A stretch of DNA of 64,000 bases from Nanobdellati archaeon (lineage in GTDB: Archaea; Nanobdellota; Nanobdellia; Woesearchaeales; GCA-2686295): the NCBI GenBank assembly GCA_014384375.1, contig JACNFY010000020.1, positions 65,222-129,221 of the forward strand, written 5' to 3'. The position numbers and the translations under genes are program-made. Under the pieces are notes generated by a model that saw only the letters and a list, made by a program, of their open reading frames with translations, had not been told where the DNA came from and ran no database searches. This document shows, in pieces, positions 2,874-38,322 of this stretch. Every line of letters starts with the position of its first letter. Positions within the stretch are counted from its first letter, which is position 1.

Positions 2874-3566
2874 TTAACCAATCGCTACTGAAAACTGGTT
2901 TGTTCCTGTGCAGTTGACCTGCCTTGTTGCTCCTGGTGAAAGGTCTATCTCACCAAGAGGGCTGACTGTAGCGTCATCAATCGACATGTTCTCTATTGTA
3001 GGAGGATTGCCTACCACATCCGGCACTTCTAATTCTGCTTGCGTAACTCTGATTTCTTCTCCAGCACTAACAGCATCTACATGAACATGAATGTGTAAAT
3101 CTGTATAGTCAGTAATGCTTTCAGCTTCTGCATCTGTTAAAGTATATGTGTATGTTGTATAAGCAGTTCTGTCAATGCTAGTCTTTACAGATGAAGCAAT
3201 TACTGTAACACCTTGATATAAATGGAAAAAGAGTTTTTCTGGACCACCTCCATATTTAGCTGCTATCGCAGTCATACGCATTATATGGCTTGTATTTACT
3301 CCTGGGTCAGTAACATCGGTTAGATTAAATTGTATTTCTGATTCATCTACGCTTGAATTTACATAATCCGTATCGCTATTAGGAGTAACTTCGTCTACTG
3401 CTTGCCAATACTCAGTATCGCCACCTTGATTAACTACAAACCAATCTGTTGAAGATAATGTATCATCAGGTCTTCCAAATTGTGCGCTTTGGACTGTTTG
3501 CATGCTCAAGATTAAAGATAAGCAAAATACCAATATAAACACCACTATTGCTTTTTTATTCCTCAT
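2874..3566 (-). CDS. secreted protein of unknown function (Sec signal peptide)
   Basis: 230 aa. N-terminal signal peptide (KKAIVVFILVFCLSLILSMQTVQSA). Acidic Thr/Asp-rich mature part with several N-x-S/T sequons. The start overlaps the stop of the upstream Tfx-like ORF (ATGA). No family recognised. Confidence 0.5.
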   Translation of the reverse strand: MRNKKAIVVFILVFCLSLILSMQTVQSAQFGRPDDTLSSTDWFVVNQGGDTEYWQAVDEVTPNSDTDYVNSSVDESEIQFNLTDVTDPGVNTSHIMRMTAIAAKYGGGPEKLFFHLYQGVTVIASSVKTSIDRTAYTTYTYTLTDAEAESITDYTDLHIHVHVDAVSAGEEIRVTQAELEVPDVVGNPPTIENMSIDDATVSPLGEIDLSPGATRQVNCTGTNQFSVAIG

Positions 3567-3745
3567 TTTAATCCTAGTCTCTTTGCCTCTTCTAGTGTTT
3601 GTCTTGCTTCCCTTATCTTTCTTAGAGCATTTTTTTCGAAATTAGAAACAGCTGCCTGGCTTATACCAAGCTTTTTGCTAACCTCTATCTGTGTTAACTC
3701 TTTTGCTCTTAGCTCAAGAACTTCTATCTCTTTTTGTGTAAGCAT
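3563..3745 (-). CDS. Tfx-type HTH DNA-binding mini-protein
   Basis: 60 aa. LTQKEIEVLELRAKELTQIEVSKKLGISQAAVSNFEKNALRKIREARQTL matches the N-terminal HTH of archaeal Tfx (LuxR/sigma-70 region-4-like). The Tfx C-terminal domain is absent. Confidence 0.6.
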   Translation of the reverse strand: MLTQKEIEVLELRAKELTQIEVSKKLGISQAAVSNFEKNALRKIREARQTLEEAKRLGLK

Positions 3746-3848
3746 GTTATCCCTGCGTCTCTATAAGCGTTATAAGTTATATCTTTATTATAACTTGTAT
3801 TTGTTATATTTAAATTTTTCCCTAAAAAAAGACAAAATACAGAAACAA

Positions 3849-3882
3849 TCTAACCCTTCTTTCTCAAAGAAAGATTAAGCTC
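3849..3882. repeat. left copy of exact 34-bp direct repeat (duplicate of aspS 3' end)
   Basis: TCTAACCCTTCTTTCTCAAAGAAAGATTAAGCTC, identical to 5180..5213. Non-coding here: on the minus strand an in-frame stop lies 9 codons upstream. Confidence 0.9.
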
Positions 3883-3954
3883 CTTTCTCCCTAAAAACCA
3901 CAAGATTTATAAATAAACCAAAGTTATATATATTGGTAACTATGGTTAATTAAA

Positions 3955-4593
3955 ATGATTCCTTTAAGCTTGAGATTAAAAAAAGCGAGACACAAAGAAA
4001 TAGCTAGAACTCAGGATTTGATGATTGAAGAGCTTTACAAACAATTTAATGAAGCTGTTTTGCATGGCGGAACAGCTATATGGAGATGTTATCAGGGAAA
4101 TAGATTTTCAGAAGATGTTGATGTGTATATTAAGAGAGATATTAACAGGATAAATAATCTTTTTAAGAATCTTGAAAAAGCAGGATTTATAGTTGAAAAG
4201 AAAAAAATCAGTGAAAACAGTATCTTCTCAAAATTGCAATTTAATAGAGTAACAGTAAGGTTTGAAGCTTTATTCAAAACCAAAAAAGGATTTTTAAAAG
4301 AATATGAAACTATTGAAGGGAACTTTATTACAGTCTATACATTAACTCCGGAAGAATTGATAAAAGAGAAAGTTAATGCTTACTTAAAAAGATTTAAAAT
4401 AAGAGACATTTATGATATTTTCTTCTTATTAAGACATGTAAAGGATGAAGATGAAGTTTTGAAAGAACTAAAAGTATTAACTAAGAGATTTAAGCAACCA
4501 ATTGATAAAGAAGACCTGAAGGTTTTGGTTATTGAGGGCTTGGTCCCTGATGTAAAACAAATGCTAATGTATATAAACAGATGGGTGAAATAA
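3955..4593 (+). CDS. abiEii: AbiEii-family nucleotidyltransferase toxin (type IV TA system)
   Basis: 212 aa. GGTAIWRCYQGNRFSEDVDVY matches the AbiEii/DUF1814 (COG2253) signature GGTAL...R.SeDlD. Confidence 0.75.
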   Translation: MIPLSLRLKKARHKEIARTQDLMIEELYKQFNEAVLHGGTAIWRCYQGNRFSEDVDVYIKRDINRINNLFKNLEKAGFIVEKKKISENSIFSKLQFNRVTVRFEALFKTKKGFLKEYETIEGNFITVYTLTPEELIKEKVNAYLKRFKIRDIYDIFFLLRHVKDEDEVLKELKVLTKRFKQPIDKEDLKVLVIEGLVPDVKQMLMYINRWVK

Positions 4594-5171
4594 TATTGGG
4601 GAAGATAAAGTATATTAAGGATTTAGAAAGATTGTTTGAAAAAAGCCCGGTAGTAGATGTTAATTCAATAGTAAGATTAATCAGGAATAAAAAAAATGTT
4701 AAGCAGTATCAAAAACAATTAATAAGAAATCTTGTTTTAAAAGGCAGAATAAAAAAGCTAGTAAAAGGATTCTACACGATGCATAACGACCCCTCATTGG
4801 CTGTATTTTGCATCAAGCCCTCTTATCTTGGTTTACAGGATGCATTAAGTTTTCATGAACTTTGGGAACAGGAAACAATTCCAGTGATAATCACAACGAG
4901 AAAAGTAAGGCCTGGAATAAGAAAGATTCTAGGGAGTAACATCTTGATTAGGAGGATAGATAAAAAATATGTTTTCGGCATTAATTATGAAAAACAAGGA
5001 GATTTTTATTTTCCTTATTCTGATATAGAGAAGACCTTTATTGACATGATCTATTTCAAACAAGGAATAAGCCAAGAAGTGAGACAAGAGATAATCAAAA
5101 AAATCAATATGAAAAAATTAAATTCATATTTGAAAGTTTATCCGAAAAGATTCAGAAAAAGGTTTATTTGA
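4581..5171 (+). CDS. abiEi: AbiEi-family antitoxin / transcriptional regulator
   Basis: 196 aa. N-terminal winged helix ending in the AbiEi hallmark LVLKGRIKKLVKGFYTM (G.l.rv.rGlY), followed by a COG5340-like C-domain. The start overlaps the abiEii end by 13 nt. Confidence 0.65.
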   Translation: MGEIILGKIKYIKDLERLFEKSPVVDVNSIVRLIRNKKNVKQYQKQLIRNLVLKGRIKKLVKGFYTMHNDPSLAVFCIKPSYLGLQDALSFHELWEQETIPVIITTRKVRPGIRKILGSNILIRRIDKKYVFGINYEKQGDFYFPYSDIEKTFIDMIYFKQGISQEVRQEIIKKINMKKLNSYLKVYPKRFRKRFI

Positions 5172-5179
5172 AATACTGT

Positions 5180-5213
5180 TCTAACCCTTCTTTCTCAAAG
5201 AAAGATTAAGCTC
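5180..5213. repeat. right copy of exact 34-bp direct repeat (functional 3' end of aspS)
   Basis: Identical to 3849..3882. On the minus strand it encodes the aspS C-terminus ...ELNLSLRKKG plus stop. Confidence 0.9.
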
Positions 5214-6599
5214 TTTAAGCTGCTCATCGTAGATCTCTGAAGGGCTTCCCATCATCAAGTCCTTTGCATCTTTGTTCTTTGGAAAAGCAATAACATCCCT
5301 GATAGAATCACAACCAGCCATTATAGCAACAAGCCTGTCAAAACCAAAAGCAATACCTCCATGTGGAGGAGCTCCATATTTGAAAGCATTCAACAAGAAA
5401 CCAAATTTCTCCTGAACTTCCTTATCACCAATCTTCAACGCTTTAAAAATCTTCTTCTGGATGTCACCCTTATGAATCCTAATAGAACCGCCTGCAATCT
5501 CCTCACCATTCAAAACAAGGTCATAAGCTTTTGACATAGCTTCGCTCAAAAATTTATTTTTTGGCGCGCCAACAGCTTTGCTGTTGAGCGTTTCAGGGTT
5601 CTTCTCCAATAATCCCAATGAGTTATCAGCCGGCATAGTGAAAGGATGATGCACAGAAACAAGGCGTTTCTCTTCCTTGCTATATTCAAACAACGGGAAC
5701 TTGTTAACCCATAAGAAAGAGTATGTATGTCCGCCTTTCTTCAAGTGTGGTCTGTCAGTTCCGTATTTCTTCATAGCTGTCTTGTAATCCATTCTTGAAA
5801 AAGGAGTCTTTACATCAACATTCAAAACCTCTTTGAAAACATACTTCATGAGTCTCTCAAAAACATCATAGATGTCTTCTTCATCAATAAAGCTCATCTC
5901 AACATCTATCTGAGTGAACTCAGGCTGTCTGTCAGCTCTTAAATCCTCATCTCTAAAGCATTTCACGATTTGGAAATACCTGTCAAAGCCAGCCACCATG
6001 AAAAGTTGCTTGAACAACTGGGGACTCTGTGGCAAAGCATAGAATTTCCCCTTGTGGACTCTGCTCGGCACCAAGTAATCACGAGCGCCTTCAGGTGTTG
6101 ACTTAGCAATCATAGGAGTTTCTATCTCTAAAAACCCTTCTTTGTCAAAAAAATCACGGACAGCCTTGGCTGCTTTATGTCTTAAAATAATGTTTTTCTG
6201 CATAAAACCGCTTCTTAAATCAAGATATCTATAAATCAATCTTGTCTCCTCTGTTGACTTATCATCACCAATCTCCAAAGGAATAGGCTCAGACTCATTC
6301 AACACTTCAATCTTATCAGCCTTTACCTCAATCTCTCCAGTAGTCATCTCTTTGTTCACATCCTTCGCAGGTCTTGCCTGCACTTTACCTTCTACAAGAA
6401 CAACTGATTCCTTTCTTAACTGACCATACCTCTTTGCAAACTCAGGATTAAGAAAAACCTGTGTTGAACCATACCTATCTCTTAACTTCAGAAAACCTAT
6501 CTTACCAAAAGTTCTTATCTTATCAACCCAGCCGGTCAGCCTTGCTTTTTTACCAACATGCTTCTTGTTTAACTCCCCACAGGTATGCGTTCTTAACAT
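5181..6599 (-). CDS. aspS: aspartate--tRNA ligase, bacterial type, lacking the GAD insertion domain
   Basis: 472 aa. Bacterial-type N-terminus (MLRTHTCGEL..GWVDKIRTFGKIGFLKLRDRYG) and motif 3 PPHGGIAFGFDRLVAIMAG..SIRDVIAFPK. Confidence 0.85.
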   Translation of the reverse strand: MLRTHTCGELNKKHVGKKARLTGWVDKIRTFGKIGFLKLRDRYGSTQVFLNPEFAKRYGQLRKESVVLVEGKVQARPAKDVNKEMTTGEIEVKADKIEVLNESEPIPLEIGDDKSTEETRLIYRYLDLRSGFMQKNIILRHKAAKAVRDFFDKEGFLEIETPMIAKSTPEGARDYLVPSRVHKGKFYALPQSPQLFKQLFMVAGFDRYFQIVKCFRDEDLRADRQPEFTQIDVEMSFIDEEDIYDVFERLMKYVFKEVLNVDVKTPFSRMDYKTAMKKYGTDRPHLKKGGHTYSFLWVNKFPLFEYSKEEKRLVSVHHPFTMPADNSLGLLEKNPETLNSKAVGAPKNKFLSEAMSKAYDLVLNGEEIAGGSIRIHKGDIQKKIFKALKIGDKEVQEKFGFLLNAFKYGAPPHGGIAFGFDRLVAIMAGCDSIRDVIAFPKNKDAKDLMMGSPSEIYDEQLKELNLSLRKKG

Positions 6600-22762: not shown

Positions 22763-24019
22763 TTAGTAGTAGGTTTGTGCTCCTTCCTCGTCTTGACCTC
22801 TTAGCTTGTTGAATCCTATTATCAAGCCAATGATTATTAGGATTATTACAAGCACGACCAATGCGACTTCTAGTCCTCTCTTCAAACCTGCTGCTCCTTC
22901 TCCAGCTACTACATTAGCTGTCAAAGGTATTGCTTCTGAGTCATCTTCTGATGTTACTGTGGCCATAAACACTTTTTCTCCTGCTGCATCCTCATCTGCT
23001 TCTACATATAGGTAGACTGTCTTAGTGTCTCCTGCTGGTACAACTACCACTGAAGAAGGTGATAATCTGCTTGTTCCCCAGGTCTCGACTCCACTCACTG
23101 TTATTGTAAATGTTCTTGCTGAAGTTCCCTGGTTTTCTATCATTATGGGGAAGGCTACTTCTGATCCTGCAGAGACTTCTTGTGTTTCTGGAACTGTCAC
23201 AACTGTTTTTCCTTCAGCTGCTTGTACAACACATGAATCACCTGAGAGCACCGTTATTTGAGCTGTTTCTATTGCTGATTCATACTCATCAAACTCGACT
23301 TCTATCTCCACATCGTAGACTCCTGGACTTGCACAATCTGGAATTCTTAGCAAAAATTCCTCAAGTGTTTCTTTTTCATCAGCTTCCAACTCATCTAGGT
23401 ATTCTGAGTCTCTGACATTTAATTCTGGAATTGATACTGTAACTTTAACATCATCTAAGTCATCATCTCCAATGTTTTGGACTCTTACCATTGCAGTGAA
23501 TGCTCTTCCTGCAGCGATTGTGGATGATGGGCTGAATGAGTAGTCCTTCACTATAACTGCATCCTCTTCATCTACACCAACAACGTGCAACTGGTATACA
23601 TTCTCATATGAAAGTCCGTCTTCATCTCCGACCCTGATTCTTAGCAAAGTATATTTCTTGTCCATCCTCACAGGAACTTCTAGTTCTAATTCAATAGTAT
23701 CAACATCTCCTGTTGACATATCAAATATCCTTGATGTTGCAGAAACAAGATCTTCTTCTTTGTGAGAATATCTATATCCATAGATATCTGCTTCCACTTG
23801 CACATTAGCGACATCAGCTAATGCTTTAACCCTAACCTTTATGTCAAGGTCTTCTCCTCTCTCAACCTGTAAATTGGTTGTATGGTTTCCGATATCTAAT
23901 GTTTGATCAAACTCTTCACCATTTATCTTAATGTACAAAATTTCGAGACTTTGTGCGCTAACAAAGCTTACTGCTAATAAAGCAAGTGCCATTAGAACAA
24001 CCACCTTAGCAATATTCAT
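22763..24019 (-). CDS. acidic secreted, C-terminally anchored surface protein (S-layer candidate)
   Basis: 418 aa. Signal peptide (LALLAVSFVSAQS), D/E-rich beta-sandwich-like repeats and a C-terminal TM anchor (ALVVLVIILIIIGLIIGF). Visibly GC-richer than its surroundings. Strong SD. Confidence 0.6.
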   Translation of the reverse strand: MNIAKVVVLMALALLAVSFVSAQSLEILYIKINGEEFDQTLDIGNHTTNLQVERGEDLDIKVRVKALADVANVQVEADIYGYRYSHKEEDLVSATSRIFDMSTGDVDTIELELEVPVRMDKKYTLLRIRVGDEDGLSYENVYQLHVVGVDEEDAVIVKDYSFSPSSTIAAGRAFTAMVRVQNIGDDDLDDVKVTVSIPELNVRDSEYLDELEADEKETLEEFLLRIPDCASPGVYDVEIEVEFDEYESAIETAQITVLSGDSCVVQAAEGKTVVTVPETQEVSAGSEVAFPIMIENQGTSARTFTITVSGVETWGTSRLSPSSVVVVPAGDTKTVYLYVEADEDAAGEKVFMATVTSEDDSEAIPLTANVVAGEGAAGLKRGLEVALVVLVIILIIIGLIIGFNKLRGQDEEGAQTYY

Positions 24020-33153: not shown

Positions 33154-33681
33154 TCACTTAATAACTTCAAGAAGATAATGTATTTCTGATGAAGGAAAAA
33201 CCCAGCAAAAAAATCTTTGATAAAAAAGAGGAAATAAATTAATAATAAAATCAAAAGGTAAGGAATAAAACTTTGAATTCATAAAAGACTTACCTGAGAA
33301 AAAAAATATTCTTTTCCTTATAATTTTAAACTTTGCTTTTGAATAATAGCCTTTCTCAGAAAAATAATCAAACGTTTTGTAAGTGAAAAATCTCTTATGT
33401 TGCGGATCATTAAAAGCTCCTTGACCTGAAAAATAAGGAGCTATCACTTTTAATCTTCCTTGAGGCTTTAATAATCTATTAATTTCTTCTAAGACAGCGA
33501 ATAAATCTTCAACATGTTCCAAAAAATGTTTGCAGAAAACTTCATCAAAATGATTTTTTTTAAAAGGATAAGGAAATTTATCCAAATCATGAACAACATC
33601 AACTCCAGGTAACTTTGCAACATCAACATTCAAGTATTCTTCAAGTATGTTTCTGCCACATCCTAAATGTAGTTTATTCAT
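33154..33681 (-). CDS. SAM-dependent methyltransferase (Methyltransf_11-like)
   Basis: 175 aa. LHLGCGRN, HFLEHVED. The start overlaps the aglB stop by 8 nt. Confidence 0.65.
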   Translation of the reverse strand: MNKLHLGCGRNILEEYLNVDVAKLPGVDVVHDLDKFPYPFKKNHFDEVFCKHFLEHVEDLFAVLEEINRLLKPQGRLKVIAPYFSGQGAFNDPQHKRFFTYKTFDYFSEKGYYSKAKFKIIRKRIFFFSGKSFMNSKFYSLPFDFIINLFPLFYQRFFCWVFPSSEIHYLLEVIK

Positions 33682-36541
33682 TTTCTAAAATCGGATTCCA
33701 ATCAACCTTCCAAACAAGAATTCTACTTCCAGACACAGAGGTTAAGTCACTAAACTTTTCGAAATGAGTTGTATATCTTCCGTCCAAGTAGAATAACCTT
33801 GTGAACAAAGACTGTGAAAGAGAGGGATGTGTCACTAAAGCTCTGTTAGTCACTCTATCATAGACTAAATCTAATGCAATATCTCCTCCACCAGCATCAT
33901 ATTTTCTAAAGTCTTCATCAGCTATTATAACATTTCTGGGTTTTGTTTCTTGTTGAGCAACAGCTAATCCTGTATTTCTGTCAATAAATGAAAGAATAAA
34001 TCTTGTATCAACAGGGTCTGAAAGGTTTATGATGGCTTTGCTAATTCTAACATTCTGCCCAAGATTACTTTGACCAATTCCTAAACTAACATCACATTCA
34101 GCAATTTCAGAAGTGTTTTTACAGCCCCTCATATTTGGTGTAGCATAATTCGGCCAAGGAGCAATCCAATTATTAACCTGCTGGTCAGATGTTAGTGATT
34201 GAACCTCATAATAGTAATTACTTGCTGCTTCTTCAGTAATATTAAACCTGTCAGTTAACAAATTGATAGCTTCCTGATAATCAGCTTTCTTCACATTGTT
34301 ATATATGAATGATCTGTCAAAATTCCAACTTCCAAAGTGGGACCAAACACCGGCCTTGCCAACCATGTCGCCAGAAGTTATGAAAAAGGCTTCAGAAGGG
34401 TCACAATGAGTGTACATAGTTACATTATTAATAGCATCATCGTCAAAACCTTTTTCCTTCAAATATAAAGCGACCTCATCTTGTTCCATCATAATAATAT
34501 CATAAACTATGTCAACCGAAATCTCAGTATCATCATACTTCTTATTAATCTCGTCAAAAGCATTATTTGCACCACAATCAAGCATTCTCAATATTCCGAT
34601 CGCTTGCTCCTCATCATCATTCATCAAAATCTTCCCTACCCAATGAGCTTGAGGTCTATTTTGGCTTCCACCATCAAAAGTTACTGATCTATCAGCGATA
34701 GATTTAAACCAATGACCAAAATCCCACCAAGAAGTTATTATTGCATCCTCAGATGAGTTATTTTTAATTTTTGTTAAAGTATTCCACCAAGCATCATTCA
34801 TACTGGGAATTTCTCCTTTGGCTGTTCTATCAGCTCCCTTGATAGGGTTAACTAGCAACAATAACAACAGAGCAATTAAGACTGCTGAAATAATTCTTTT
34901 ATTAACCTTAAATTCTCTGGCAACTAAATCTGAAAGTATAGACTGAATTGTCCCCAAAGCAATACCAAAAGCAATACCAAAAGCAGGCACCATTAGTAGA
35001 ACAAATCTAGTTCCCTTCGTACTGGCATATATAGTTCCAACAAACCATATAGTGAGGAACAAGGCGTATTTTACATCTACTTTCCTCTTATCTTTAAGAA
35101 GTAAAAGCAATCCTATAATTAGTGGCAGTAAAAATATAATTATATATTTTATTGGCGAAAATCCAATAAAAGTCTTTGTTATCAATAATAGGTAAACAAT
35201 AGACCCTAAGCCTAAAAGGATGAAATCTCTTTTGTTGATATTATCTCTTTTTATCATTGTGAGAATAACTCCTAAACCCGCTATGAAAAAGAAAAACTTT
35301 CCTCCAATTTGACCGATAATAGAACTTATAGATGCTGGATTAAGTTCAGCGACTGTTGTATAAACGTTGGGCCAAAGATTTGGTTTGGCTACTTGTTTTA
35401 GAACTTTAAAAGAAATCGGTCCTTTGATAAATTGCTCAAAATTTGCAAAGTTCAAGAACAAGGAAACAAATATTCCAGAGAAAACAACAAATAGTATCAA
35501 AACAGTTATCGAATTACGTAACTCTTTAGTCCATAAATTTCTAAAAGACTTTGTCTGAACAACAGATTTTACCACTAGATATGCTGTGTATGCTAAGACA
35601 ACAACGAGTAAAAAATCAAATATATACCACCAACCAGACCAAGCAAAACTGTACAAACCAATAAAGAAACCGGCAAGTGCTAATAGAGGTATTTGTTTCT
35701 TCCAATTATCTGATTCAAAGGCTTCGATAAAAACCCATGCAATTAGAAGAGGAAACAAAACATTGTAAGCATCTGTATCTGCAAAGCCGCCAGCTGTTCT
35801 TCCAAGGAAGGCAGAATGGACAGCCACAATCATTGCAGCAATAAATCCTCCAAAATAACCCACTCTTCTCTTAGCTAAGAAAAAAGCAGGTATCACTGAA
35901 AGAGCAGATAAAAGTATTGGCACAAAGAAAACATTCTTCATCAAACTATTATTGGTGAAGATACTCATAAACTTATGAAAATAGGCTTCAAAAATTGGAT
36001 GGAAAGTAGTTCTTGTAAAACTACCAAGTGGAGCTATTACATGAGTGTTAAATGATCTTCCATTAACTAAGATATCTCCTACATATCCATGGTCTATAAA
36101 ATTTCTTGCCTGCATAAAATAAACATAAGGGTCAATAGCTAACAAATAGGTCTGACCAGATTCATCCTTAAAACGAGACTTCAGATCAAAAGATATTGCA
36201 CGAATCTGAGAATTCAAGCCAGAGCCTTGCTGGTTAAAAAAATCTGCTACTTGCTCATCTATCAATCTGTTTTTGTTCGGTGCTGGCAGATTTGGATATT
36301 GTTGATTTATCTGGTTAGCAACCTGTGCTCTGACAGAATTATAAATATTATTATACGCCCAATCATCTGTTACAGGCAAATAATAAGAATACATCCTAAA
36401 ATGAATAGAGAAATACATAGCTATTAGTATTAACAAAATAGACAGCCAAACCTTATTCTTTCCAAAACTTATTTTTTTGAACAAAGATTTAACTGTTGAT
36501 AAATCAAAAGAGAACTCATCATCAGTTTTTCTCTTAGCCAT
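33674..36541 (-). CDS. aglB: archaeal oligosaccharyltransferase AglB/STT3
   Basis: WWDFGHW (the WWDYG motif), about 13 N-terminal TM helices and a large C-terminal domain. Track ORF starts at TTG 36598; ATG 36541 is preceded by AAGGGGGGT 4 nt upstream and is preferred. Confidence 0.9.
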   Translation of the reverse strand: MAKRKTDDEFSFDLSTVKSLFKKISFGKNKVWLSILLILIAMYFSIHFRMYSYYLPVTDDWAYNNIYNSVRAQVANQINQQYPNLPAPNKNRLIDEQVADFFNQQGSGLNSQIRAISFDLKSRFKDESGQTYLLAIDPYVYFMQARNFIDHGYVGDILVNGRSFNTHVIAPLGSFTRTTFHPIFEAYFHKFMSIFTNNSLMKNVFFVPILLSALSVIPAFFLAKRRVGYFGGFIAAMIVAVHSAFLGRTAGGFADTDAYNVLFPLLIAWVFIEAFESDNWKKQIPLLALAGFFIGLYSFAWSGWWYIFDFLLVVVLAYTAYLVVKSVVQTKSFRNLWTKELRNSITVLILFVVFSGIFVSLFLNFANFEQFIKGPISFKVLKQVAKPNLWPNVYTTVAELNPASISSIIGQIGGKFFFFIAGLGVILTMIKRDNINKRDFILLGLGSIVYLLLITKTFIGFSPIKYIIIFLLPLIIGLLLLLKDKRKVDVKYALFLTIWFVGTIYASTKGTRFVLLMVPAFGIAFGIALGTIQSILSDLVAREFKVNKRIISAVLIALLLLLLVNPIKGADRTAKGEIPSMNDAWWNTLTKIKNNSSEDAIITSWWDFGHWFKSIADRSVTFDGGSQNRPQAHWVGKILMNDDEEQAIGILRMLDCGANNAFDEINKKYDDTEISVDIVYDIIMMEQDEVALYLKEKGFDDDAINNVTMYTHCDPSEAFFITSGDMVGKAGVWSHFGSWNFDRSFIYNNVKKADYQEAINLLTDRFNITEEAASNYYYEVQSLTSDQQVNNWIAPWPNYATPNMRGCKNTSEIAECDVSLGIGQSNLGQNVRISKAIINLSDPVDTRFILSFIDRNTGLAVAQQETKPRNVIIADEDFRKYDAGGGDIALDLVYDRVTNRALVTHPSLSQSLFTRLFYLDGRYTTHFEKFSDLTSVSGSRILVWKVDWNPILENE

Positions 36542-36594
36542 GAAACCCCCCTTCGTGCTAGAAGTTATAATGAGACGTTTATATAATTTTTGCT

Positions 36595-38322
36595 TCAATC
36601 TTTTGCAATATTTTCACTGTCCCACATATCTTGAGGATTATCATTTCTTGCTATTAAAAAATTGTTCATCACTAGATAATCTATTCCTGTACCCATCATA
36701 CATCTATATGCTTCCTCAGGAGTACACACAATTGGCTCTCCTCTGATATTAAATGATGTGTTGATTAATATGGGAACTCCGCTTAGTTTCTCAAACTCTT
36801 TGATAAGAGCATAATATTTCTTGTTTTGTTCTTTTTTAATTGTTTGTAATCTTCCACTACCATCTATATGTGTCACCGACGGAATTAGTTTCCTTTTGTT
36901 TTTCTTCACAGGATAAACAAATAACATATAAGGGACTTCTCTGTCAACTTCAAAATATTCCTTTGCATCTTCCCAAGTTACTACAGGAGCAAAAGGTCTG
37001 AACATCTCTCTATGTTTCACCTTTGCATTAAGTATGTCTTTCATATTCGGATTCAAAGGATTTGCTAAAATGCTTCTATTACCAAGAGCTCTTGGACCCC
37101 ACTCCATTCTTCCCTGAAACCATCCAACAACATCATCTTTCAAAATAAGTTTAGCTGTTTTCCTTATTATTTCAGACTCTGTAAACTCAACATATTTTAT
37201 CTTTCTAGAATCCAGAAATCCTTTTATCTCAACTCTTGAAAATCCGGAGCCAAAATATACATCTTTCAAAACTTGCTTTCTCTTATTCCTAAGAATAGTA
37301 TTGTAAGCGTAAAACGCTGCACCCATAGCTGCTCCTGCATCGCTTGCTGCAGGTTGTATGAACATTTTTTTGAAAGCGGTGTTTTTTGAAATTTTCCCGT
37401 TTGCAACACTGTTAAGAGCCACTCCACCAGCCATGCAAAGATTCTTTACTCCAGTTTCCTTATACAAATTATTTAGTATCTTGAATATTACTTCCTCAGT
37501 TATTTTCTGCAAGGAACAAGCCATATCCTTATATACTTGGTCAATCTTTGACTCTTTCTTTCTTACAGGACCGAATTCCTTTATGAACTTCTTACTTGGC
37601 ATTCTCATCTTGTAATGAAAGTCAAAATAAGACATATCCAACTGAAAGCTTCCATCACTCGCTATCCTAATTACTTTTTTCAACTGCTCATAATAAGTTG
37701 GTTTTCCATAAGCAGCTAACCCCATCACTTTGTACTCATCATTATTCACTTTAAAACCCAGATAAGCTGTAATCGTACTGTATAACAATCCAAGTGAATG
37801 TGGAAAAACAATTTCTTTTGTTATTGTAATATTATTATCTTTTGCATAACCAATACTAGCTGTTGTCCATTCGCCAACACCATCAATAGTAAATATCGAG
37901 GCTTCTTTAAATGGAGAAACTAAGTAAGCTGATGCAGCGTGAGCTAGGTGATGTTCTATAAAGAGAATTTCTCCTTTGTATTTCAAATGCTTTTTCAGCA
38001 TTGAAGGAAATCTAAGTTTTTCATGCAACCATGAAGGCATTGCTTTGTAGAAAGACCAAAAACCACGAGGAAAAACCTCTAAGTATTGGCTTAGTAAGCG
38101 CTCGAATTTCAATAAAGGCTTTTCATAGAAAGCAACATAATCAACATCCTTAATTGTTATTCCTGCCTCTTTCAAGCTGTATAGAGAAGCTTCCTTTGGG
38201 AAGGAATTATCATGCTTCTTTCTTGAGAAGCGTTCCTGTTCTGCAGCAGCAATTATTATGCCATCCTTCAACAAACAAGCAGCACTGTCATGATAATAGC
38301 ACGAAATTCCTAAAATGTACAT
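36595..38322 (-). CDS. NodU/CmcH-family carbamoyltransferase
   Basis: 575 aa. N-terminal ILGISCYYHDSAACLLKDG..AAEQERFSRKKHD and a C-terminal carbamoyltransferase domain (INTSFNIRGEPIV). Confidence 0.85.
   Translation of the reverse strand: MYILGISCYYHDSAACLLKDGIIIAAAEQERFSRKKHDNSFPKEASLYSLKEAGITIKDVDYVAFYEKPLLKFERLLSQYLEVFPRGFWSFYKAMPSWLHEKLRFPSMLKKHLKYKGEILFIEHHLAHAASAYLVSPFKEASIFTIDGVGEWTTASIGYAKDNNITITKEIVFPHSLGLLYSTITAYLGFKVNNDEYKVMGLAAYGKPTYYEQLKKVIRIASDGSFQLDMSYFDFHYKMRMPSKKFIKEFGPVRKKESKIDQVYKDMACSLQKITEEVIFKILNNLYKETGVKNLCMAGGVALNSVANGKISKNTAFKKMFIQPAASDAGAAMGAAFYAYNTILRNKRKQVLKDVYFGSGFSRVEIKGFLDSRKIKYVEFTESEIIRKTAKLILKDDVVGWFQGRMEWGPRALGNRSILANPLNPNMKDILNAKVKHREMFRPFAPVVTWEDAKEYFEVDREVPYMLFVYPVKKNKRKLIPSVTHIDGSGRLQTIKKEQNKKYYALIKEFEKLSGVPILINTSFNIRGEPIVCTPEEAYRCMMGTGIDYLVMNNFLIARNDNPQDMWDSENIAKD

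Follow-up and report, generated by a model that had tools for sequence, protein, structure and literature searches.

A minimal, toxin-first AbiE cassette bracketed by a duplicated aspS gene end in a DPANN archaeon

AbiE systems, described from Streptococcus agalactiae and Lactococcus (AbiEi–AbiEii) and from Mycobacterium tuberculosis (MenAT), pair a Pol-beta-type nucleotidyltransferase of the DUF1814/PF08843 family with a partner recognized by AbiEi profiles (Dy et al. 2014, PMC3985639; bioRxiv 10.64898/2026.01.19.700257). In the characterized systems abiEi comes first and overlaps abiEii by 4 nt, and AbiEi autoregulates through inverted repeats in the promoter (PMC3985639; PMC7319586). Few defence or addiction systems are enriched in DPANN archaea, and AbiE is among them (PMC12988326). 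Here we describe an AbiE-type toxin–antitoxin (TA) cassette that lies against aspS, the gene for aspartyl-tRNA synthetase (AspRS), in a 64,000-nt stretch of an archaeal genome (assembly GCA_014384375.1, contig JACNFY010000020.1, positions 65,222–129,221), hereafter the window. With the systems above it shares the nucleotidyltransferase and its motifs I–IV, the AbiEi-profile partner, tight gene coupling, a promoter inverted repeat suited to autoregulation, compactness and horizontal spread. It departs from them in running from toxin to antitoxin, in a promoter of the archaeal B recognition element (BRE)/TATA type, in a toxin that is short (212 aa) and very distant, in an antitoxin that falls below Pfam thresholds, and in being known here from sequence alone.

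For the position of the cassette, several kinds of mobile DNA offer comparisons. ICESt1 and ICESt3 insert at the 3′ end of fda, and SGI1 inserts at trmE, again the 3′ end of a protein-coding gene. Such integrative elements and their integrase-less derivatives, the cis-mobilizable elements (CIMEs), share with our locus direct repeats of the 3′ end of a housekeeping gene, an intact gene and a one-copy empty site, and a recombinase-less CIME may still lie between both repeats, as here. Campbell integration, in which a circle with chromosomal homology pops in and out by a single crossover and no dedicated recombinase is needed, is known mainly from laboratory constructs and from plasmid- or insertion sequence (IS)-mediated cointegrates. 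It too yields repeats of target sequence that are as long as the common segment, whatever that length is, with copies that differ where donor and recipient differ, and it is reversible. Some casposons insert at gene 3′ ends with long target duplications, and a CRISPR repeat of about 24–48 bp is duplicated at each spacer integration; casposons make fixed 14–15-bp duplications and have terminal inverted repeats, however, neither of which is present at our locus, and no Cas1 was seen here. Integron cassettes are small, trimmed and often single-operon mobile units with circular intermediates, and TA cassettes are common among them, whereas our locus has no IntI, attI or attC array, its repeat is native target rather than a cassette-borne attC, and it has its own promoter. 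Unlike IS elements, transposons and miniature inverted-repeat transposable elements, it lacks terminal inverted repeats, and its duplication measures 34 bp here and from 0 to more than 100 bp in relatives. In the literature that we searched on AbiE, TA systems, DPANN archaea, direct repeats and target duplication, we found no natural family of promoter-to-stop TA cassettes with host gene-end handles. We regard two things as new, each of a known kind: an archaeal AbiE lineage in which the toxin gene comes first, and a cassette that has no recombinase and stands between two copies of a gene end.

Insertion at the 3′ end of aspS

An exact 34-mer, TCTAACCCTTCTTTCTCAAAGAAAGATTAAGCTC, occurs twice in the whole 64-kb window, at 3849–3882 and 5180–5213, and no third copy with up to three mismatches was found there (shuffles expect 0). 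Similarity is lost immediately at either end of the repeat, a length of 37 nt being reached by the repeat tool only with one accepted mismatch, so that the exact repeat with dissimilar flanks reported in the first-pass annotation of this DNA is borne out. The two copies also have the coding status given there. Read on the minus strand, the right copy (GAG CTT AAT CTT TCT TTG AGA AAG AAG GGT TAG A) consists of the final 10 aspS codons (ELNLSLRKKG), the TAG stop and 1 nt, and is the functional 3′ end of aspS; the same C terminus, KELNLSLRKKG*, is found in an 82%-identical AspRS. The left copy is a non-coding duplicate, preceded in the aspS frame by a TAA nine codons away, and adjoins the native aspS–tfx intergenic region. 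The target gene itself is intact (aspS, 5181–6599, minus strand) and encodes a 472-aa AspRS that is of the bacterial type and lacks the GAD insertion domain (NCBIfam PRK00476, E = 1e-206 in two stretches; Pfam tRNA-synt_2 plus OB fold). Its original downstream neighbour is a Tfx-like helix-turn-helix (HTH) gene of 60 aa (3563–3745, minus strand; N-terminal part of TIGR00721 tfx, E = 6.5e-11).

The DNA between the two copies (3883–5179, 1,297 bp, plus strand) holds only two real open reading frames (ORFs), an AbiEii toxin and an AbiEi-like antitoxin, as the first-pass annotation had stated. It occurs once in the window and has a GC content of 28.9%, compared with 34.4% for the window and 39.8% for aspS. 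The left repeat stands about 8–17 nt from the block conserved throughout the family, and the right repeat follows the antitoxin stop after 8 nt. Trimmed to a functional promoter-to-stop module with nothing else, the insert is a minimal AbiE cassette of promoter, toxin and antitoxin. Its outer ends read ..AATACTGT on the right and CTTTCTCC.. on the left, and a circular form would join them through the 34-mer. Terminal inverted repeats were looked for at 3883.. and ..5179 and none was found; neither was a conserved end motif of the cassette, and no microhomology was seen at the junctions. We rejected a 13/14 match between the left end of the cassette (3884–3897) and native intergenic DNA (3815–3828), which is within the range of chance in this AT-rich region.

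The closest AspRS proteins are annotated as Woesearchaeota, and the host is a Woesearchaeota-like DPANN archaeon. The closest of all (P0122, 82% identical) is encoded on L169, a 107-kb JGI contig from a congeneric Woesearchaeota, on which 105 nt lie between aspS and a downstream HTH gene of 60 aa that is identical to the Tfx-like gene of the window at 56 of 60 residues, as counted from the sequences. This is the empty site that the first-pass annotation predicted, with the aspS stop about 100 bp from the Tfx-like gene. The window minus the cassette and one repeat aligns with L169 collinearly and with no junction indel; the cassette is absent from the aspS–tfx interval of L169, which holds a single repeat segment with 5 substitutions and encodes the same AspRS C terminus. 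Because this empty site is collinear and has one copy of the segment, we conclude that the cassette was inserted and that the repeat derives from the native target, which supports the earlier proposal of an insertion at the aspS 3′ end with a duplicated target. The insertion is precise, lying 1 nt past the aspS stop, and since the last 34 bp of the target stand on both sides, aspS stays intact. Taken together, the identity of the cassette and its precise insertion with a duplicated target are in our judgement nearly certain. The two closest species-representative genomes (L009, 74% AspRS identity; L010, 61%) were uninformative as empty sites: both keep the upstream synteny, and both differ in the downstream genes and the AspRS C terminus. 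Exact scans for the 34-mer in viral contigs and JGI metagenome contigs gave no match.

The junctions recur in independent data. Exact-protein look-ups of window genes in other samples led to two SPAdes contigs from another sample (ERZ24794654), of which L002 runs through the right junction (aspS–repeat–AbiEi) and L006 through the left (AbiEii–repeat–tfx), with 99.96–100% identity. Logan contigs assembled at k = 31 from four runs (L001, L003, L004 and L005) either stop 30 nt inside the repeat or, like L003, span only the cassette and carry the repeat at each end; a de Bruijn graph is expected to break in this way where a genuine 34-bp repeat occurs. By index counts only, each of aspS, AbiEii and AbiEi is also present on several contigs of 20–200 kb. 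The junctions are not an assembly artefact. One more Logan contig (L007, from SRR12347143) joins aspS to tfx through a single repeat with 100% identity to both flanks, which is the empty configuration; together, L007 and L003 are only suggestive of an excision product or a polymorphism.

Some further features of the target region may be recorded. The 34-mer has a central 7-3-7 palindrome (−4.2 kcal/mol, z = −2.3). GTTAGAT at the end of the repeat was considered as an integron core site and rejected as too degenerate for meaning. The Tfx-like product corresponds to only the N-terminal HTH part of the 137–145-aa Tfx/EnfR-type regulators (profile positions 7–62), and this short form is kept in the congener. 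Within aspS there is a 48-nt in-frame insertion (5544–5591, minus strand) that encodes 16 aa, TLNSKAVGAPKNKFLS (residues 337–352), and is missing from the closest AspRS (P0122, on L169); the other close relatives listed have 447–467 aa, compared with 472. This insertion is strongly palindromic (DNA fold −16.6 kcal/mol, z = −4.7), with a CAACAGC-AAA-GCTGTTG hairpin, has a 7-nt terminal inverted repeat (CGCTCAA...TTGAGCG) and contains the sole GGCGCGCC of the 64-kb window. It has the look of a very small palindromic element that entered aspS without shifting the frame, and it recalls the Rickettsia palindromic elements.

The toxin, the antitoxin and their promoter

Seven ORFs of the window were searched against profiles. 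The first gene of the cassette (3955–4593, plus strand) encodes an AbiEii-type nucleotidyltransferase toxin of 212 aa that matches Pfam PF08843 (E = 1.4e-17; 64.9 bits against a cutoff of 22.5), 27 PADLOC AbiEii models (best E = 7.5e-21) and, in a profile search, the DUF1814 chains 4o8s and 4ok0 of the PDB (E = 1e-7). AbiEii nucleotidyltransferases are marked by motifs I–II (hGG/S..R..DhD), III (KLxAaxxR) and IV (+DxxD) (PMC3985639). Motifs I–IV of the toxin are invariant among 34 homologues, in the form GG38-39, R50, D54xD56, K139VNAYLKR146 and R150DIYD154, with a motif I–II spacing of 14 residues against 15 in characterized AbiEii (PMC3985639).

The second gene (4581–5171, plus strand) encodes an AbiEi-like antitoxin and regulator of 196 aa if read from ATG 4581, or 191 aa from TTG 4596. 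AbiEi proteins, of the COG5340 type, combine a winged HTH at the N terminus with an antitoxin domain at the C terminus. The product of the second gene matches 18 PADLOC AbiEi models (best E = 4.3e-19, residues 20–186) and has no Pfam match, while its homologues give weak matches to AbiEi_4 in 15 of 30 cases (best E = 0.0013) and to AbiEi_1 in 2 of 30. A profile of the antitoxin found nothing significant among PDB sequences, and a single-sequence structure prediction, with a predicted local distance difference test (pLDDT) score of 36, was left unused. Judged by these profile matches, to AbiEii in Pfam and PADLOC and to AbiEi in PADLOC, the pair is an AbiE-type toxin–antitoxin or abortive-infection module, in agreement with the first-pass annotation.

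That annotation also described a toxin-first order with a 13-nt overlap between the genes. The order stands: in each of the 59 related loci with both genes the antitoxin lies directly downstream of the toxin, so that toxin-first order is a trait of the whole family and the reverse of that in characterized systems. The overlap is doubtful, because the N terminus shared by the family AbiEi proteins (MGKxKY) aligns with TTG 4596, which is L6 of the ATG-started ORF and lies 2 nt past the toxin stop; in most relatives the gap between the two genes is 0 to +2 nt. TTG 4596 is the more likely start of the antitoxin, and the overlap obtained from ATG 4581 is probably an artefact of ORF calling.

Upstream of the toxin lies the cassette promoter with a candidate operator (3892–3943, plus strand), the most conserved non-coding block across 52 related loci. 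It contains a TATA box, TTTATAAATA (3906–3915, plus strand), preceded by an A-rich BRE-like stretch, and a palindrome, AAAGTTA-N10-TAACTAT (3920–3943, plus strand), between the TATA box and the toxin start. In the 52 loci the promoter consensus reads ATTTATAAATAAAC.AAAGTTATATATAT...TAACTTT.GTT and the palindrome consensus AAAGTTA-N10-TAACTTT, and conservation stops about 10–15 nt upstream of the TATA box. The palindrome is likely to be the AbiEi operator, because AbiEi autoregulates through inverted repeats (PMC3985639; PMC7319586). Its conservation is such that contigs from k = 31 assemblies of other samples break within it, L175 and L177 starting at TAAAC.AAAGTTATATATATTAGTAACTTT. By analogy with the family, the toxin is predicted to arrest growth by transferring nucleotides to tRNA and AbiEi to neutralize the toxin and repress the promoter through the palindrome, and the module would act as an addiction or phage-defence unit.

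Related cassettes and their flanking repeats

The toxin belongs to a large family. A search gave 1,553 matches, of which the best 120 are 62–75% identical and 210–236 aa long (mostly 211–212), and those homologues that carry a name are Woesearchaeota or Nanoarchaeota, in agreement with the enrichment of AbiE in DPANN archaea (PMC12988326). The best relative in a plasmid collection is a Campylobacter AbiEii, about 31% identical and with a small ORF upstream of the toxin gene; a phage collection contained no relative, and a collection of viral contigs contained neither the 34-mer nor the cassette family.

We fetched 80 related loci from metagenomes and searched them for flanking repeats, using as controls the upstream region of one locus paired with the downstream region of another. 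Exact flanking repeats of at least 19 bp were present in 3 of 31 full-size loci and in none of 930 control pairs, and blastn-short matches of at least 30 bits between the flanks in 9 of 59 loci and 0.4% of controls. When the comparison was confined to narrow windows at the cassette ends, scores of at least 14 were reached by 7 of 46 non-redundant loci and 0.8% of mismatched control pairs, and scores of at least 16 by 5 of the 46 and 0.1% of controls. Altogether, about 15–25% of some 60 other DPANN loci carry direct repeats that hug the cassette boundaries. Among the clearest cases, most have a left copy whose end lies 60–96 nt short of the toxin ATG, and about half have a right copy that begins 0–12 nt past the antitoxin stop.

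These repeats range from 13 to more than 100 bp, all differ in sequence, and all are copies of local gene ends or intergenic DNA. The repeat is the 3′ end of the upstream ORF at L111 and L123, the 5′ start of metG at L118, the promoter and first 24 codons of the downstream gene at L159, and intergenic DNA at L093. With up to nine mismatches allowed, the 34-mer of the window was found beside none of the related cassettes, its only occurrence being the native aspS end of L169, and no related cassette was found beside aspS among the fetched loci. The short Logan contigs (about 1.4 kb) of other family members are not bounded by repeats, but break in the conserved operator or arbitrarily. For the L159 cassette a second empty site was sought through the neighbouring glutamyl-tRNA synthetase (GluRS) and none was found: a 100% GluRS match proved to be the same filled locus, and relatives at 80–83% have lost synteny.

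Where the two copies of a coding repeat differ, the differences resemble those between orthologues. At L111 the dead copy keeps its frame for about 20 codons and stops where the other copy does (TAA against TAG), with a Leu TTA/CTT double change among the differences. Three of five changed codons are synonymous at L123, the others being V/A and I/V; so are four of seven at L149 and both changes within the 24 codons at L159. Across these four loci, the whole of the sample, 67 of 80 codons specify the same residue, compared with 54 expected under random substitutions in a null model that ignores transition bias, and none of 20,000 simulations reached 67; each locus is also significant individually (P = 0.0007 to 0.035). 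Such synonymous-biased changes imply that the copies diverged while both were in functional genes, so that one copy would have come from the orthologue of another lineage together with the cassette. Decay of a dead copy in situ would give mostly non-synonymous, frame-blind changes, and the pattern favours a fragment of a donor orthologue.

The neighbourhoods of several cassettes, with translations read by eye, contain other TA or mobile genes. One cassette sits between two PIN-domain (VapC-like) paralogues (L157:2547–5040), one adjoins a HicAB-like pair (L159:5212–5666), and one has a DNA methyltransferase and an IS1182-like transposase nearby (L160:2287–5237). Genes for tRNA synthetases also occur near cassettes: in the window aspS (5181–6599) is adjacent and asnS (1518–2813) is two genes away, metG (L118:2898–4742) lies by another cassette, and gltX (L159:7888–9543) is one gene away from a third. 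These neighbours are curious since AbiEii/MenT toxins act on tRNA. We rejected an enrichment of synthetase genes, as 3 of about 46 loci is, by an informal estimate, roughly what chance would give in genomes of about 1,000 genes.

Proposed integration without a recombinase, and its rivals

No recombinase was found in the cassette by ORF and profile searches, and no integrase, transposase or Cas1 was seen in the 64-kb window, where translations of ORFs of at least 150 aa were read by eye in addition to the seven profile-searched ORFs; the first-pass annotation had likewise noted no integrase. Translations read by eye also showed that window positions 24000–64000 are mostly a large cell-surface glycosylation region, with an AglB-like oligosaccharyltransferase (33674–36598), ADP-heptose pathway genes, a NeuB-like sialic acid synthase, many glycosyltransferases and epimerases, and a phosphonate-type ATP-binding cassette (ABC) transporter; no mobile-element genes were seen there.

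The reading that we prefer is that an acquired AbiE module was placed beside aspS by Campbell-type homologous recombination. In this scheme there would be no dedicated recombinase and the host's homologous recombination would carry out the integration: a circle made of the cassette and one copy of the aspS end would undergo a single crossover with the chromosomal aspS end, and recombination between the 34-bp repeats could later pop the cassette out, restoring the empty site and regenerating the circle. Repeats across the family are target segments whose length and sequence are arbitrary from one event to the next, as Campbell integration predicts. The window copies are identical, which would mean that the donor belonged to the same species or population, or that the event is too recent to tell. 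We consider this statement as a whole, mechanism included, evenly balanced between true and false, and the Campbell-type mechanism taken alone about even or a shade below.

Several points weigh against it. Most related loci have no flanking repeat. One cassette occurs at two loci, L144 (2141–3453) and L160 (130–1442), with 93.5% identity over 1,313 nt and with unrelated DNA on either side; the homology begins sharply at TGGAACCGCAAAG, 13 nt before the TATA box, and ends as sharply at ...GGGGAGAAAA, inside the C-terminal tail of the antitoxin. The last 2–11 antitoxin codons and the stop are here supplied by the local flank, which would explain the variable antitoxin lengths in the family (190–217 aa), and a repeat of at least 10 nt was looked for at both sites and is absent from both. 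The cassette is thus a discrete unit that is also able to move without duplication, and its sharp ends, shared by the two loci, hint at an end-specific process. A homology of 34 bp is close to the shortest that homologous recombination uses efficiently, and very short beside the laboratory cases of Campbell integration, and the model leaves unexplained how the end of a new host gene is first captured at a new site. Because the copies in the window are identical, orthologue-type divergence is not readable there, and the Campbell-type reading of the window rests by analogy on the relatives, among which the codon-test regions at L111 and L149 reach past the blastn hit to limits chosen by eye. Finally, an assembly at k = 31 shares all k-mers among the filled, empty and circular forms across a 34-bp repeat, which bears on the configurations seen in L007 and L003.

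Among the rivals, a satellite of a site-specific integrase, comparable to a CIME, is unlikely. Here the 34-mer would be attL and attR, and a tyrosine recombinase, encoded at another place in the genome or by a helper element, would target the aspS 3′ end and mobilize the cassette in trans. Identical repeats that span the 3′ terminus of an essential gene, an empty site that is intact and has one copy, the palindrome at the centre of the repeat, junctions as free of microhomology as a clean enzymatic cut would leave, and the sharp shared ends of L144 and L160 all suit it. It has to contend, however, with a 64-kb window in which no recombinase is evident by eye, an element that is exactly the minimal cassette and keeps no remnant of other element genes, and a viral contig collection in which neither the 34-mer nor the cassette family was found. 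CIMEs have an integrase nearby or an att common to related elements to point to, neither of which was seen here; the content is always just the TA cassette, and in relatives the repeats vary with the site in length and sequence, or are lacking, at sites that are themselves unrelated. A single integrase specificity would not suffice for this, and the imperfect repeats show orthologue-type substitutions. Differences of repeat, length and site among relatives fit neither one integrase with one att site nor a transposase of fixed stagger. The first-pass suggestion of an att-type site, as for elements that target tRNA genes, is not supported, in view of the window translations read without finding an integrase, the minimal insert, the unrelated repeats and sites of relatives and the orthologue-like imperfect repeats. 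That most related loci carry the two genes without a repeat, a pattern that this annotation had named as refuting, argues against a family-wide att site and leaves the target duplication in the window untouched.

To a long target-site duplication made de novo, by a transposase-like or casposase/Cas1-like enzyme acting in trans that cuts the strands in a stagger of 34 nt and joins in the cassette as a linear molecule, the target being duplicated when the gaps are repaired, we assign an equally low probability. It would explain the first origin of repeats at a new site, and it accords with repeats that hug both cassette ends at several loci, with a window repeat that is perfect and of target origin, and with a palindrome centred in the repeat, as in CRISPR-repeat duplication by Cas1–Cas2. 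Known transposases and casposases give duplications of fixed length, however, whereas the repeats here run from 13 to more than 100 bp; no terminal inverted repeats accompany them, no Cas1 or transposase is evident by eye in the window, most loci, including the recently moved L144 and L160, lack a duplication, and the synonymous-biased divergence is unlike decay in situ.

A decayed remnant of a larger provirus or plasmid, with the TA pair as sole survivor between att sites, is considerably less probable again. When an element decays, a TA module is typically the part that survives longest, and a repeat-flanked insert of low GC content would be in keeping with such a history, but deletions would have had to trim the DNA to within about 8–17 nt of the conserved cassette on both sides while sparing both repeats. 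The same minimal unit recurs in many unrelated contexts, with no relatives in viral contigs or phages and none close in plasmids, and an insert trimmed to a promoter-to-stop cassette would hardly be what is left of a larger element. An assembly artefact, in which a small circle or the DNA of another strain was mis-joined through the shared 34-mer, would account for the collapse of k = 31 assemblies at the repeat, the circular look of L003 and the lack of the cassette in L007, but has a negligible chance of being true given that L002 and L006 span both junctions into unique sequence in a different sample and that the indexes count several 20–200-kb contigs with each gene.

The locus is a clean case, combining a filled site, an empty site in a congener, a perfect 34-bp repeat, a minimal cassette and no recombinase seen. 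With its relatives, it suggests that a TA pair may spread and persist with host recombination and a few dozen bases of a host gene. A broader proposal, which we put forward as speculative, is that DPANN AbiE cassettes form a large family of recombinase-free mobile elements, small circles that use a captured handle of host-gene homology, or an end-specific activity that can leave long duplications of variable length, to insert beside housekeeping genes or into their ends, and would be a minimal selfish class whose sole cargo is its own addiction module. If Campbell-type placement were confirmed, it would help to explain the patchy distribution of such modules, and the duplication of a gene end hugging a cassette would provide a simple sequence signature of recent insertions. 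The toxin-first AbiE lineage with its archaeal promoter is an uncharacterized branch of a family under active mechanistic study. The insertion at aspS is in itself a small, tidy event, and its value lies in being the cleanest example of a family-wide pattern.

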